Position numbers and translations under genes: made by a program. From contig JAVLKG010000006.1 in assembly GCA_032128875.1 (NCBI GenBank), forward strand, positions 314,828 through 378,827: 64,000 nucleotides of DNA, written 5' to 3'. This DNA is from Candidatus Melainabacteria bacterium 17Bon1m. GTDB taxonomy: Bacteria > Cyanobacteriota > Vampirovibrionia > Obscuribacterales > Obscuribacteraceae. This document shows positions 23,733-30,638 of the stretch, piece after piece. Position 1 is the stretch's first letter, and every line of letters starts with the position of its first letter. Under the pieces are notes generated by a model that had not been told where the DNA came from, ran no database searches, and saw nothing but the letters and a program-made list of their open reading frames with translations.

Positions 23733-24845
23733 ATGCGCCGATTCGTATTCGCAGCTTTGATTGGAGGTTTTATCGGCTTTGCCGTGCTCTTGCAAATTGC
23801 TTCGGATAAGGCTGGATGTTGGGGCTACGACAATTTTCATTGTGGAAATATTGTTATGCTTCCTGTCACCGCGTTCAAAATCTCTGATCTGATGCACGCG
23901 GCACGCATCCTCATCTTCCAATTTGAGATCGTAAATTCAGGATTTGAATTCTTCGTTAGAGGCGCTGGTGCTGGAATCTTCGTATTGATGATTTACGAGG
24001 GGCTCAGAAAACGAATCAAAACGCAGACGATTGACTCACTTCTGCGCTGGACTTCGCTGCATGAGAATTCGATTGCCACTGCACTGTGGCTTGTGGGACT
24101 TCTTTTTGGATGTTACGTTCTGCTCGAACTTCTAATGTTCTGCATTGGTGTGTCGTATTTTGCCTTGGGAGGGTACCTAAATGCGACTTCAATAGCAATT
24201 ATTCTTCCTTCAGTTGTTCTGCATGTTCTAATTCTTGCCGCAGCTTACAAGAAGAAGCTTTTCCTTTGGCAACAAGTAAGCCGCGACACTCCACACTTTC
24301 ATCTCGTAAAATTTTTGAAGGCTTTTTTCTTTCTGCTAGTCATTTTACTTGGAGTTTTGTTGGCTTGTTATTTCATGCTCTTAGGTCAAAGTTATTGGGG
24401 TGGTGCGTCTGAGTTATCCAGCTCTGATTTAAATCTTGCACCATCTACCTCGTATAAAGGTGTTGTTTTTGCAGAAGCATTCAATACTTTTATTAGTGCT
24501 TGGTGTGCTTGCGGTTTGGTTTTTCTGTTGGAGACTTCAACTTTTAAATATTACACAGGAAAGACGTGGACAGAATGTGCACGTATCTGTGGATTCAATG
24601 CTCTTTTACAATGTGGTTGGCTGCATCTTTTGTTGCCTACAATTTGCGTGCCTCTCTTTTTTCATCCGATCGATGGCGGTTCCATCCGCCCGTTTCTGAT
24701 GGATGTTAATAGTATTGTCGTTGCAATCTCCACGATTCCCGTGACCTTATGTGGAGTGGCAGTTGCTTTCGCGCCCAGGCAGGACGGAAAGCTCGATCTC
24801 TACGCTACAGATTCGAAACTCCATAATTCCTCCACATTAGTTTGA
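23733..24845 (+). CDS. Hypothetical polytopic membrane protein
   Basis: 370-aa ORF with many hydrophobic helices. Confidence 0.6.
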   Translation: MRRFVFAALIGGFIGFAVLLQIASDKAGCWGYDNFHCGNIVMLPVTAFKISDLMHAARILIFQFEIVNSGFEFFVRGAGAGIFVLMIYEGLRKRIKTQTIDSLLRWTSLHENSIATALWLVGLLFGCYVLLELLMFCIGVSYFALGGYLNATSIAIILPSVVLHVLILAAAYKKKLFLWQQVSRDTPHFHLVKFLKAFFFLLVILLGVLLACYFMLLGQSYWGGASELSSSDLNLAPSTSYKGVVFAEAFNTFISAWCACGLVFLLETSTFKYYTGKTWTECARICGFNALLQCGWLHLLLPTICVPLFFHPIDGGSIRPFLMDVNSIVVAISTIPVTLCGVAVAFAPRQDGKLDLYATDSKLHNSSTLV

Positions 24846-24966
24846 TAGTGTGAAGGTAATGGCAGGCGAGGGCTTGCGTTTAACCGATCAGCATCATGGG
24901 CGCGAAGTGATGGGCACGAAACGTCACTTCCGCTCCTGATGCTGCATCGATGACTTTGGAGACGAT

Positions 24967-26082
24967 ATGCGAAACACTCTTATGCTAGCCGTTGTCTGTA
25001 GTTTTGCGATGATTGCTATTATTTCTGCAAATTCCGCCTTTGCGGAAACCGACGGAATCGGTTGGATTCCCACTTGGAAGCAAGCGATTTCCGAGGCATC
25101 CAAAGCACACAAACCGATTTTATTGGTTGCTGCAGCTCCGCAGTGTGCTGGCGTCTCTGGTATTTGGTGACCAGGCAAGCAAGACATGGATGAGAGGTTC
25201 TTGTCCAAGCCCAACGTAATAAAAGCCTCCAGAGATTTCGTATGCGTCCGCATGATGACCTACGAGAGTGCAAGCGAAGCGCAACTGCTGAAGACACTCT
25301 GGCGTCCGGATGCGCCGCTGGAGAATACTGTTTTTGCCATTCTTGACCCGGATGGACGCTCTATCGTTCGAGGTGGTCGCAGTCCGCAAATGGTATTTCG
25401 CGATGCGGATGATATGACGACGCACATGAATGAGATCGCCCGCTACTACGGTAGTAACGGTGATTCTGTTCCGAAAGCGCTGCCCACAGTAGATACTGTG
25501 CGCCTTGCAGTAGACGTCGCTGCGTGCGACAAACGTCCGTTAGTGATTGTTGTTGGGCAAAACGATCAAGAGAGAAAACAGCTGGCAGCGCGCCTGGCAC
25601 CAAGCGCCTGGTCGGAGCCATTAATCGGAAAACTCGTTTATACGACTGGAAGCGGAACAGACCTGAGCATCATCAAGAATGCAAATCGATCCAGCGGATA
25701 CATTTTCGCTGCACCTGGGTTGTTCGGAACAGACGGCACCGCCTTGATGCATTTAAGCCCTTCTGCCAGTCAGATTGATCTTTCTGCGGCGTCCAAGCAG
25801 GCAATTGGAATGTATCAACCTCAAGTGCTGAGCCACCATGACCATGTACGTGCAGGGAGGCAAAACGGCGTTCAATGGCAAAGTGCTATACCTGTTTCCG
25901 ACCCGCACGATCCCCGATCGTCCGGTGGTGCGCAAAACGGCGGTCCTGTGGTTTTTGGTCATCCCCCTGGTCCTCATCCAAGCGCCGGTCGCCTTGGCGG
26001 CGGATTCAGTGGCGGAAGTTATGGTGCTCCTTATGGTTCACCTAGCACCAGGCGACAAACTTACATTCAGGAATTTCGGTAG
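24967..26082 (+). CDS. Exported thioredoxin-like protein, probable selenoprotein (UGA=Sec at 25168-25170), 371 aa
   Basis: ORFs 24967..25170 and 25186..26082 are in frame. Read-through gives IGWIPTWKQAISEASKAHKPILLVAAAPQCAGVSGIW-U-PGKQDMDERFLSKPNVIKASRDFVCVR, a continuous thioredoxin-fold pattern. GGAG RBS and signal peptide (AFA) at the first ATG. Confidence 0.8.
25174..25211 (+). promoter_or_regulatory. Candidate bacterial SECIS hairpin
   Basis: UGGAUGAGA-GGU-UCUUGUCCA 9-bp stem (25187-25207), apical loop starting with G 25 nt after the UGA; possible lower GGC/GCC pairs. Confidence 0.6.
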
Positions 26083-27838: not shown

Positions 27839-29542
27839 ATGCCGGATAAGTACGAAATTGCCAATTATCTGCGCGAGACTGGTTTATTGCTCAGTGCTAA
27901 GGGCGAAAACCAATTTAAGGCGCGTGCGTATCTGCGTGGAGCAAAGGCAATTGAGGCCACGCAAGCAGACATCGGTAAGTTGATAAAGGATGACATGCTC
28001 ACCTCTATTCCTGGCATTGGTGAATCATTGGCGAAGACCATTGCGGAAATTTACCAGTCAGGCGAGTCAAAATATCTGGGGCGATTGAAAGATGAAGTGC
28101 CAGAAGGGACGATAGAACTTTCCCGAATTCCTGGTCTTACACTTGAGAAAATTGAAAAGTTGACTAGTGCTCTGGGTATCCGCACAATTGCCGAGCTGGA
28201 GCAGGCATGCCTGGAAGAGCGCGTGCGGCTTGTGCCTGGCTTTGCGGCACGCAGCGAAAGAGCACTTTTGGGGAAAATTCAGCGGATGAAGTTGCGTTCG
28301 TCAGCCATTTTGCTGGTCGATGCTTTAGAAACCGCCGAGGAAATCATTTCTTATATGCGATCCTCAGTACGTGGTTTGGATATTGAGGTGACGGGCGACG
28401 TGCGTCGCTGGCACGAAGCCGTGGACAAAGTTCAGTTCGTTGCCAAACCCAAAAAGGTTTCCTCCGCTATTGATGCTTTCAAGAAATTCCCTCTTGTTGT
28501 TGAGGTCATTGAAAGTAGTGAGGAATTTGTAGCTGCCAGGCTTTTCAACGAGCTAGTCGTCGAAATGTTTATTGCTGAGAATATGCATTTGAAACTGTTG
28601 GAAACCACAAGCCCAGCTCACTTCTCGCATCTGCAAAGACTCGCAAAACGCAAGAATATTAGTTTGAGCGACGCCGAGTTTAGAACAAAAACGCGACACA
28701 TAGAAGTCGTTTCCGAAGCAGACGTTTATAAAAAACTCGGATTAGCTTTTGTACCGCCCGAGCTGCGAGAAGATGATGGCGAGATAGAACTAGCTCGCAA
28801 GGACGACTTCTCAGATTTACTAGAAATTGAAGATATTCAAGGCATGACTCATTGCCACAGCACTTACTCAGATGGGCGTCATTCCATAGAGCAAATGGCT
28901 CGTGCGGCTGAGCGTCTGGGCATGAAGTACATGACCATTACTGATCATTCTCCGACCGCGCATTATGCTGGTGGTCTTACTGTCGATCGCCTGAAAGAAC
29001 AATGGGAGGAGATTGAGCGCGTTCAAGAGAAAGTGAAGATCAAACTGTTAAAAGGAACTGAATGCGACATTCTGGCGGACGGTGCGCTAGATTACCCTGA
29101 CGAAATTCTTGAACAGTTTGATGTGATCATCGCAAGTATTCATTCTCGTTATAAGCAAGATGAGCCGCGTATGACAAAGCGCTTGCTAAATGGCTTGCGC
29201 AATCCGCATTTTAAGATTTGGGGACATCCGCTTGGACGCCTTGTCCTAAGACGTGATCCGATTCCTTGCGATGTTGAGAAGATTTTGGAAGCCATTCAAG
29301 ACTCTCCCGTTGCGATTGAAATTAACGGAGATCCCTATCGGCTGGACCTGGCACCAAATTGGGCAAAGATTGCCAGCGAAATGGGCTTCAAATTTGTAAT
29401 TTCTACTGATGCGCATGCAACTTCAGATTTGCAGAACTTGCCATTCGGAATTCACCAAGCAAGACGTGCTGGTATTCGTAAATCGCAAGTATTGAACGCA
29501 CAGAGTTTTTCAACATTTAGGAAAGCCGTAAAACCAGCGTAG
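27839..29542 (+). CDS. polX: DNA polymerase X / PHP-domain protein with altered polymerase active site
   Basis: GENQFKARAY, HhH IPGIG motifs, PPELRE, intact PHP (HCHSTYSDG, TDHS, HP.GR, STDAH); canonical GSxRR..GDxD reads GDVRR..DKVQ. Confidence 0.92.
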   Translation: MPDKYEIANYLRETGLLLSAKGENQFKARAYLRGAKAIEATQADIGKLIKDDMLTSIPGIGESLAKTIAEIYQSGESKYLGRLKDEVPEGTIELSRIPGLTLEKIEKLTSALGIRTIAELEQACLEERVRLVPGFAARSERALLGKIQRMKLRSSAILLVDALETAEEIISYMRSSVRGLDIEVTGDVRRWHEAVDKVQFVAKPKKVSSAIDAFKKFPLVVEVIESSEEFVAARLFNELVVEMFIAENMHLKLLETTSPAHFSHLQRLAKRKNISLSDAEFRTKTRHIEVVSEADVYKKLGLAFVPPELREDDGEIELARKDDFSDLLEIEDIQGMTHCHSTYSDGRHSIEQMARAAERLGMKYMTITDHSPTAHYAGGLTVDRLKEQWEEIERVQEKVKIKLLKGTECDILADGALDYPDEILEQFDVIIASIHSRYKQDEPRMTKRLLNGLRNPHFKIWGHPLGRLVLRRDPIPCDVEKILEAIQDSPVAIEINGDPYRLDLAPNWAKIASEMGFKFVISTDAHATSDLQNLPFGIHQARRAGIRKSQVLNAQSFSTFRKAVKPA

Positions 29543-29564
29543 TCATGTCACGGGGCTAATAATT

Positions 29565-30638
29565 ATGTCAGTTGCCAAATCAACAACCTCCAAGACTAAA
29601 GCCAGTAAGGTTTCTGCTGCTACTAGAAATTCGTCTACTTCGAACTCGAAGCTGAATTATGAGTATGCGCCGATGGAAGCTCTGCTGCAGGACAAATTAC
29701 CTTCGGGAGATAAGTGGCAGTATGAGCCGAAGTGGGATGGTTTTCGATGTATCGCATTTCGCGATGGAGATGAGATAGAGCTGCGTTCGAAAAGTGGGCA
29801 GTCTTTGAGTAGATATTTTCCTGAAGTCGTTGATTCTCTTTCGAAATTGAAGGCCGATAAATTTGTGCTTGATGGCGAGTTGGTTATTCCTGTCGGAAAC
29901 ATTTTTTCGTTTGACGATCTTTTGCAGAGAATACATCCGGCAGAGAGTCGTGTCCGAAAGCTGTCCGTGGAATTTCCTGCCTCATACATCGTATTCGATC
30001 TTCTGAGTTCGGACGATGGAGAAAACCTGACGTCGCTGAGTTTGAGAGATAGACGTCAAAAATTAGAGAAATTCTCTGGCAAGTATTTGAAGAATCATAA
30101 AACGATAACTCTAAGCCCAGTTGCTTATGACATTGCGGATGCGAATGAGTGGCTAAGCAACTCTGGCGCCATCATAGACGGTGTTATTGCCAAAGACGTT
30201 GATCTGCCATATCAAACCGGCAATCGCAAAGGGATGGTTAAAGTCAAAAGGATGCGCACGGCGGACTGTGTTGTCGGTGGTTTTCGTTATGGCACTAATT
30301 CAAAAGTAGTTGGGTCGCTCTTGCTTGGTCTCTATGATGATGAAGGTGGTTTACACCATGTCGGCTTTACTTCATCGCTCTCGTCAAGCGAAAAAAAGGA
30401 ATTAACTAAGAAACTTGAAAGCCTAAAGGCCGAGGCTTCATTTACTGAGAATGTGCCTGGTGCTCCTAGTCGCTGGAGCAATGAAAGGAGCACGGAATGG
30501 GTGCCGCTAAAGCCTAAGCTGGTAGTTGAAGTTCGCTACGATCACGTCACTGGGGGGCGTTTTCGTCATGGTACGAAACTATTGCGTTGGCGCCCCGACA
30601 AGAAAGCGAAGCAGTGCGCGTTGGAGCAAATTTCATAA
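29565..30638 (+). CDS. ATP-dependent DNA ligase (LigC-like)
   Basis: YEPKWDGFR adenylation motif, LDGE, FDLL, GVIAK, KVK, EVRYD..RFRH..RWRPDK. Confidence 0.92.
   Translation: MSVAKSTTSKTKASKVSAATRNSSTSNSKLNYEYAPMEALLQDKLPSGDKWQYEPKWDGFRCIAFRDGDEIELRSKSGQSLSRYFPEVVDSLSKLKADKFVLDGELVIPVGNIFSFDDLLQRIHPAESRVRKLSVEFPASYIVFDLLSSDDGENLTSLSLRDRRQKLEKFSGKYLKNHKTITLSPVAYDIADANEWLSNSGAIIDGVIAKDVDLPYQTGNRKGMVKVKRMRTADCVVGGFRYGTNSKVVGSLLLGLYDDEGGLHHVGFTSSLSSSEKKELTKKLESLKAEASFTENVPGAPSRWSNERSTEWVPLKPKLVVEVRYDHVTGGRFRHGTKLLRWRPDKKAKQCALEQIS

Follow-up and report, generated by a model that had tools for sequence, protein, structure and literature searches.

A predicted exported selenoprotein with two tandem thioredoxin-like domains and an unusual C-x7-U motif in an Obscuribacterales genome

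Does an in-frame TGA end a gene or encode selenocysteine (Sec)? This question is raised by positions 24967-26082 of the 64,000-nucleotide stretch of Candidatus Melainabacteria bacterium 17Bon1m DNA analyzed here (the window; contig JAVLKG010000006.1). On the + strand, an open reading frame (ORF) of 67 aa (24967..25170) stops at a TGA (25168-25170), and an ORF of 298 aa (25186..26082) continues in the same frame after that TGA and the codons CCA GGC AAG CAA GAC. A first-pass annotation, made from the letters of the DNA, had described the two ORFs as sharing one frame, separated by TGA plus five sense codons, with a clear ribosome-binding site and a signal peptide on the first ORF only, and the sequence bears this description out. 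A Shine-Dalgarno-like GGAG (24958..24961, + strand) stands 5 nt 5′ of the first ATG, and we read nothing comparable 5′ of the ATG at 25186. Residues 1-26 (24967..25044, + strand) look by eye like a signal peptide with a predicted cleavage between AFA and E, and a comparable hydrophobic N terminus ending in A-x-A is present in 12 of 12 close homologues. Read-through of the TGA yields a 371-residue product that reads ...APQCAGVSGIW-U-PGKQDMD... around the site; with the TGA written as U and a slash at the predicted cleavage, the product is MRNTLMLAVVCSFAMIAIISANSAFA/ETDG...KPILLVAAAPQCAGVSGIW-U-PGKQDMDERFLS... The whole gene (24967..26082, + strand) would thus comprise 371 codons, one of them for Sec, followed by the stop TAG at 26080-26082, as in full-length homologues with one in-frame TGA. 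We conclude, with a probability of roughly 0.85, that 24967-26082 is one intact gene for a selenoprotein of ~345 residues in its mature form, with UGA 25168-25170 probably read as Sec and export predicted from features of the sequence. This probability is meant for the explanation as a whole, which also includes Sec insertion directed by an RNA hairpin, two thioredoxin-like domains, and a putative redox couple with Cys60.

To establish whether the TGA is a fixed feature of the gene, we compared homologues across the site. A search of 61 related genomes returned 12 full-length matches (51-100% identity, own genome included), and each of the 12 contains a single TGA, which falls at one and the same codon of the alignment between conserved flanks. 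Five further rows matched in this search: three were weak (E ~5e-4 to 9e-4), one was a C-terminal piece located where a contig ends, and one was a fragment of 70 aa that has a TAA. When one genome was scanned for each species, 204 of the 207 candidate stretches proved to be relatives; in the best 80 loci, which we analyzed, the TGA lies within C-x7-TGA-P in 81/81 gene copies. In a sample of Planctomycetota, 37 of 301 genomes had a match, and the TGA was present in 42/42 gene copies (43 rows, since a frameshift divides one gene). The same TGA codon was found in every homologue read across the site, down to ~36% identity and with both flanks conserved. Because the same aligned codon recurs in this way, we take the TGA to be more than a chance occurrence.

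As in known Sec/Cys pairs, this family has relatives with cysteine in place of Sec. Continuous homologues P0029, P0081, P0103, and P0197 have Cys in the Sec column. A first metagenome scan, with the Cys form P0197 as query, found no relative, and a second, with an alignment of Cys forms as query, did find relatives. We fetched 65 metagenome loci by motifs located upstream of the site; 43 of them have TGA at the Sec column and 22 have TGT or TGC. Thus, the comparison suggested by the first-pass annotation, whether homologues have TGA or a Cys codon at this position and are conserved on both sides of it, came out in favor of Sec. A sequence error at 25168 had also been considered there. The TGA is retained in a contig that comes from an independent study and shows 13 differences over 1251 nt, and we exclude an assembly error because the TGA is conserved.

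Some individual loci of the family are worth recording. The Planctomycetota homologue G411:C3:21432-22304 has two in-frame TGA codons within the matched region and may contain a second Sec. In the same family as the host, locus L036 (G014:C18:43802-44008) has only a 70-residue gene fragment with an in-frame TAA, possibly a decayed remnant. The metagenome Cys form L141 has an in-frame TAA 10 codons 3′ of the active-site Cys, which may reflect a pseudogene or an assembly error.

The machinery for Sec decoding is present in the host. In its 7.55-Mb assembly we found tRNA-Sec (67.5 bits, cut-off 47; anticodon TCA), selB (285.8 bits, cut-off 242), selA (496.8 bits, cut-off 268), and selD (370.2 bits, cut-off 125), so that every component named for checking in the first-pass annotation lies above its curated cut-off. 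SelA was also found in 4/4 distant carriers tested. Among 151 sampled genomes of the class, selA was above its cut-off in 31: 26 of 30 genomes of the host's family plus the host's own, 2/2 in a second family of the same order, and 2/2 in a third family; in the remaining families sampled, no selA reached the cut-off. Obscuribacterales, the non-photosynthetic sister lineage of Cyanobacteria, commonly decode Sec, and the host genome is placed in this order by its relatives; the earlier remark that Sec use would be noteworthy in a cyanobacteria-related lineage therefore applies. Across the whole host genome, no Sec-type formate dehydrogenase reaches the model cut-off, and the related molybdopterin-enzyme matches are free of in-frame stops. 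Other selenoproteins, that of the window among them, must therefore sustain the Sec trait in this host. We found no full-text paper that combines Obscuribacter with selenocysteine and, by full-text search, nothing relevant on Sec in Melainabacteria or Vampirovibrionia; according to a passage of PMC9529120, one Melainabacteria proteome has a single annotated Sec protein.

We identified a hairpin resembling a selenocysteine insertion sequence (SECIS) at 25188..25206 (+ strand). It starts 17 nt after the TGA and has an 8-bp stem and an apical loop GGU (25196-25198). In 79 distinct sequences, 94.8% of cells are paired and compensatory changes occur at 5 of the 8 pairs; the pairing score was reached by 0/500 column shuffles, and sliding the partner by 1-3 columns left 35-60% paired. 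The stem overlaps the codons for MDRSFLS, whose synonymous sites it constrains: Arg at codon +8 is AGG in 43/45 cases, compared to 7.7% of Arg codons elsewhere in the same genes, and Ser at codon +9 is AGT in 61/61, compared to 12.8% elsewhere in the same genes. In codons 7-11 the third-position entropy amounts to 0.1-0.75 bits, compared to 1.6-2.0 bits in codons 13-20. The metagenome loci provide a natural control. The 43 TGA forms keep a mean of 7.79 of the 8 pairs (all 8 in 36/43). In the 22 Cys forms, 4.3-4.5 of the pairs are kept, and IDDGWLT or IDNGWLL takes the place of MDRSFLS.

The hairpin can be compared to the SECIS of Escherichia coli fdhF. As in fdhF-type elements, it lies shortly 3′ of the UGA and inside the coding sequence, has G/U in the apical loop, and is found together with selA, selB, selC, and selD. 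It differs in that the stem begins 17 nt after the UGA, while the minimal fdhF element begins ~11 nt after it, and in having a consensus of its own, GGACAGGAGUUUCCUGUCC, which also encodes the conserved peptide MDRSFLS. We propose that the hairpin at 25188-25206 would direct recoding of UGA 25168-25170, 17 nt upstream of it, by SelB and Sec-tRNA(Sec). Two loci with TGA forms are of interest with respect to this element. In L154, MDQGFLL replaces MDRSFLS and 5/8 standard pairs are kept; by eye, a shifted 4-bp stem (CAGG/CCUG) seems possible. L091, on a contig titled Verrucomicrobiota, has tandem gene copies at 543-1454 and 1665-2576, each with the TGA and the hairpin.

Two other readings of the TGA have to be weighed against Sec. 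If it were a true stop, created by a nonsense mutation or by misassembly, this stretch would represent a pseudogene or two distinct genes. Gene callers do split the locus, and the database entries we found are fragments or 'hypothetical protein'. We nevertheless consider a true stop barely credible for the following reasons: the codon is the same in all homologues read across the site, to ~36% identity and with conserved flanks; the independent-study contig also has it; the Cys forms are continuous proteins; and a single modeled thioredoxin fold, described below, spans it. Alternatively, a near-cognate tRNA or a reassigned code could place a standard amino acid (Trp, Cys, or Arg) at the UGA. 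Nothing specific speaks for this reading, which we regard as very improbable, although DNA alone cannot show which residue is inserted. TGA ends 9 of the 34 ORFs of at least 250 aa in the window, so the code is standard. Further, the Sec machinery is complete here and selA was found in all the distant carriers tested, the hairpin with G/U at its apex is tied only to TGA forms, and the residue that alternates with the TGA is Cys, as in known Sec/Cys pairs. We conclude that Sec is the residue most probably encoded by the TGA.

We next consider the fold of the predicted protein. An AlphaFold2 (AF2) model of the mature part, built on a 70-row alignment, was of high confidence (predicted local distance difference test score [pLDDT] 93.7; predicted template-modeling score [pTM] 0.90). 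It has two tandem domains, each with the order helix 0-strand 1-helix 1-strand 2-helix 2-strand 3-strand 4-helix 3. Domain 1 (residues ~31-161; 25057..25449, + strand) is, by the AF2 model, Pfam, and Foldseek, a thioredoxin-like domain of divergent Thioredoxin_7 type and contains the active site. In the model its strand 1 (PILLVAA) lies upstream of the TGA and its active-site helix starts right after the TGA, such that one thioredoxin fold extends across the codon, as the first-pass annotation had supposed. Domain 2 (residues ~174-282; 25486..25812, + strand) has the topology of domain 1, as judged from the order of secondary structure in the model and from two-domain Foldseek matches, and has no Cys or Sec at the helix N terminus. 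The segment VRLAVDVAACDKRPLVIVVG, earlier picked out as a second, degenerate thioredoxin-like segment, falls in this domain, where it forms a helix and the first strand, and the modeled domain is without an active site. A conserved C-terminal motif follows (residues ~290-313; 25834..25905, + strand), with the pattern H-x3-G-x3-G-x2-W-x4-P-x-T-D and near-invariant H267, G271, G275, W278, P283, and D286 (mature numbering); the window's protein has Ser for the Thr. This motif is modeled at high confidence to about mature residue 290. The translations end in a Gly/Pro-rich, low-complexity tail (25912..26079, + strand) whose length varies among relatives, and for which pLDDT is ~52-57 over mature residues ~291-309, the rest of the tail lying outside the model.

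Foldseek against the Protein Data Bank (PDB) matched domain 1 to DsbD-gamma, DsbH, 3f9u, DUF255 domains, AGR2, and ERp19 (target TM 0.54-0.65), and the domain pair to protein disulfide isomerase (PDI), ERp44, ERp57, and QSOX (probability ~1.0, query TM 0.24-0.30). Because the query TM of the latter is just 0.24-0.30, the arrangement of the two domains differs from that in PDI-type pairs. In a weak profile alignment to TXNDC12 (E = 0.63), W-U-P-G-K lines up with W-C-G-A-C, and the segment that contains Cys60 forms an 8-residue insert.

The model and the alignment together define the predicted active site. Sec68 (TGA codon 25168..25170, + strand; motif W-U-P-G-K) immediately precedes helix 1 in the model, where thioredoxins have their attacking Cys; its assignment follows from TGA conservation, the model, and the Cys homologues. 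The position at +3 is Lys in 78/79 sequences. Translation and model thus agree with the earlier reading of the TGA as the first Cys of a WCxxC motif with Lys at the resolving position. Cys60 (TGT; 25144..25146, + strand) lies 8 residues before Sec68, which gives the C-x7-U spacing, and in the model belongs to a small inserted beta-hairpin that separates strand 1 from the active-site helix; this is the extra Cys in an insert that had been noted before. It is invariant in 70/70 aligned members, Cys forms included, and is a candidate partner of Sec68. A further invariant column is Cys93 (TGC; 25243..25245, + strand) in the FVCVR strand. In full, the residues invariant in the 70 rows are C60, U/C68, P69, F91, C93, R95, Y99, E100, N120, F123, P173, D188, G221, and G254 (full-length numbering). 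The conservation of the TGA, the machinery, the hairpin, and the Cys homologues support the first-pass prediction of a Sec protein, putatively exported, with an unusual C-x7-U motif.

Comparison to known families places the protein near, but not within, several of them. Of the exported Thioredoxin_7-type domains, DsbD-gamma (1uc7, 2fwh, 1vrs), DsbH (2ju5), 3f9u, and DUF255 (3ira, 7tkv) share the fold of domain 1 (Foldseek probability 1.0). The likeness extends to predicted export and to a reactive residue at the N terminus of the first helix. The window's protein differs in having U-P-G-K rather than C-x-x-C, an 8-residue insert with an invariant Cys, a second thioredoxin-like domain, and the conserved C-terminal motif. 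More generally, it lacks the C-x-x-C spacing at the helix N terminus that characterizes CxxC thiol-disulfide oxidoreductases such as thioredoxin and DsbD-gamma. Thioredoxin_7 (PF13899) is matched by 64/70 members at E ≤ 0.01 (best E 8.6e-8), and the window's protein also has a faint DsbH match in Pfam.

Two curated families of bacterial selenoproteins also have a Thioredoxin_7-like domain, namely Trx7/PDZ (NF041199) and VPGUxxT (NF041383), with catalogued Sec motifs CxxU and VPGU, respectively (Table 1 of PMC13188914). Against NF041199 the window's protein scored 14.1 bits (cut-off 300), and 25/70 members match weakly (best E 7.6e-4); it differs in having no PDZ domain (no Pfam PDZ match) and in having C-x7-U-P-G-K where NF041199 has CxxU. 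Against NF041383 it has no match at E ≤ 1, and 7/70 members match the type 2 model weakly (best E 5.4e-4); here the difference is the I-W between the VSG/VPG tripeptide (VSG in the window's protein) and U. Against NF045694 TsoB (a rhodanese/DsbD fusion, UxxxxU) it scored 19.8 bits over 90 residues (cut-off 805). For the 70 members, no curated selenoprotein or thioredoxin model gave better than E = 5e-4, far under the NCBIfam cut-offs, and the window's protein reaches no Pfam or NCBIfam cut-off.

In the model, the presumably catalytic thioredoxin domain precedes a thioredoxin-like domain that lacks an active site, an order that may correspond to that of PDI a-b pairs, ERp44, and AGR2/AGR3 (Foldseek E 2.6e-6 to 1e-4). 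ERp44 and AGR2/AGR3 also resemble the window's protein in having a single reactive chalcogen without a +3 partner; the ERp44 motif is CRFS and that of AGR2/AGR3 is CxxS. PDI-family pairs differ in their poor global superposition (query TM 0.24-0.30, root-mean-square deviation 14-19 Å), and they are eukaryotic proteins of the endoplasmic reticulum that use Cys and have no detectable sequence relationship to this family.

Taking the gene structure, TGA conservation, RNA element, machinery, and fold as established, we propose the following mechanism. The product would be exported by means of a cleavable signal peptide and would fold into the two tandem thioredoxin-like domains. The Sec68 selenolate, the likely nucleophile because there is no Cys at +3, would attack an oxidized periplasmic substrate (a disulfide, sulfenate, or peroxide) or form a mixed Se-S bond with a client. 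Cys60 is the only nearby invariant thiol and hence the likely partner of Sec68; it would resolve the Sec68 adduct through an intramolecular selenenylsulfide. We put the odds that Cys60 and Sec68 do form a redox couple at about even. Domain 2 may serve in binding or as a scaffold without taking part in catalysis, as the b domains of protein disulfide isomerases do. Our best guess is therefore a periplasmic selenol/thiol oxidoreductase, and we lean slightly toward a function of the thiol-disulfide or sulfenate type.

Two different functions are compatible with a Sec protein at this locus, and we weighed both against an oxidoreductase. The protein might be a periplasmic binder or chaperone of soft metals or metalloids (e.g., Cu(I), Hg, As) rather than a redox enzyme, with Cys60, Sec68, and perhaps the conserved C-terminal His as ligands, as in Sco-type copper proteins. 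It does have three invariant chalcogen residues (C60, U68, C93), a near-invariant His in the C-terminal motif, and no resolving Cys at the CxxC position, and its C...U-P pattern may resemble the Cys-loop-Cys-Pro of Sco proteins. We judge this alternative to be unlikely, given that 0/70 members match a Sco, copper, or mercury family in Pfam/NCBIfam, that metal-handling genes are not conserved nearby, and that the best single-domain Foldseek matches are thiol-disulfide oxidoreductases. We would give a similarly small chance to a peroxidase-like selenoenzyme of GPx/Prx type, in which peroxide would convert Sec68 to a selenenic acid that is recycled through Cys60. In its favor are Sec at a helix N terminus, the Trp next to it (W67), and the invariant Asn of LENTVF (N120); W67 and N120 may resemble the Trp/Asn site of GPx. 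Also, the usual cis-Pro position is not Pro in the weak TXNDC12 alignment (E = 0.63). On the other hand, none of the 70 members matched a GPx or peroxiredoxin family at E ≤ 0.01, and no GPx or Prx structure is among the Foldseek matches listed. The selenol/thiol oxidoreductase remains the reading that we prefer.

Several results weigh against our explanation as a whole or in its parts. Taken alone, the 101 nt of the window that include the hairpin are not unusually stable (z = 0.40, with an equal or better fold in 128/200 shuffles), two of the eight pairs in the window's copy are G-U, and an Rfam scan of 25100-25320 gave no match beyond a chance-level viral hit. Because the single-sequence fold is not significant, the case for the hairpin rests on comparison between sequences. 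With respect to the fold, the window's protein scored 20.8 bits (full length) or 21.6 bits (mature part) against PF13899, under the cut-off of 27, and the family profile found nothing below E = 0.1 among PDB sequences; the protein is a divergent relative of Thioredoxin_7 and not a scored member. With respect to function, no neighbor is conserved within 1.5-kb flanks in the 80 loci. The largest cluster there, in 8/80, is Ser/Thr kinases, and the other named cluster is sulfatases, both of which were judged uninformative; since no neighbor gene is conserved, genomic context gives no functional hint. Finally, RNA-labeled sequencing runs hold the locus inside contigs of 27-79 kb and, because these contigs are so long, say nothing on transcription.

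The Sec-encoding gene is widespread. Among representatives of clusters at 50% identity there are 565 relatives at E ≤ 1e-3 and 166 at E ≤ 1e-30. The closest relatives are titled Candidatus Melainabacteria, Obscuribacterales, or Obscuribacteraceae, and members also occur in contigs titled Planctomycetota, Verrucomicrobiota, Vulcanimicrobiota, and Omnitrophota. A quick tree of the 70 rows, built by maximum likelihood and rooted arbitrarily on a long-branched Cys form, groups the window's protein with Melainabacteria/Obscuribacterales rows in a clade of 20 rows (Shimodaira-Hasegawa-like approximate likelihood ratio test [SH-aLRT] 100) that also has three bins without a phylum name and two labeled Proteobacteria and Cyanobacteria. 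Verrucomicrobiota and Omnitrophota form another clade (99), and Vulcanimicrobiota fall among Planctomycetota. We claim no direction of transfer because the backbone of this tree is unresolved and its root arbitrary.

Current annotation obscures the family. Among the 150 matches listed, most begin at query residue 74 to 86, just past the TGA, and 3/150 cover the site; most family entries start at the Met six codons after the Sec codon. Members are called 'hypothetical protein' wherever a source names them. Table 1 of a 2026 review of the prokaryotic selenoproteome (PMC13188914) lists 119 families, none with a C-x7-U or UPGK-type motif, and the supplementary tables of that review may list more candidates; the models that its table cites were among those we scanned. 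Nothing alike appears in passages of the GOS paper (PMC2398784), deep-Sep (PMC12013277), or a 2016 comparative paper (PMC5029168), and full-text searches yielded nothing relevant on thioredoxin-like selenoprotein families in Planctomycetes/Planctomycetota. We conclude that this thioredoxin-fold selenoprotein family is uncatalogued and widespread, that its redox motif is unusual, and that its domains are arranged in tandem; the selenoprotein catalogue thereby gains a thioredoxin-fold family with an unusual C-x7-U-P-G-K center. Methods based on Sec/Cys pairs may have missed the family because its Cys homologues are rare; the deep-Sep authors state reliance on such pairs as a limitation (PMC12013277).

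It is conceivable, if doubtful, that this is a near-obligate selenoenzyme family, in which all copies from the sampled Planctomycetota and Obscuribacterales genomes use Sec and only a few side branches have Cys forms, with a new active site (a selenolate and an inserted-hairpin Cys, with no CxxC partner and possibly no cis-Pro) for a periplasmic reaction that Cys performs poorly. If so, it would be among the selenoproteins on whose account Obscuribacterales, which lack a Sec-type formate dehydrogenase, retain the Sec machinery.

The surroundings of the gene in the window show no operon logic. A scan of the locus for promoters and terminators gave nothing useful. The neighbors are an S15 peptidase, a membrane ORF without a Pfam family, an EEP-family protein, PolX, and a DNA ligase. 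Just upstream of the selenoprotein gene, 23733-24845 is a 370-aa ORF with many hydrophobic stretches and no Pfam family, and only the closest relatives (3 loci) have a comparable ORF in front of the gene. At 27839-30638, a PolX-type DNA polymerase (HHH_8, DNA_pol_B_thumb, PHP) lies directly upstream of an ATP-dependent DNA ligase, and the two may be a repair gene pair.

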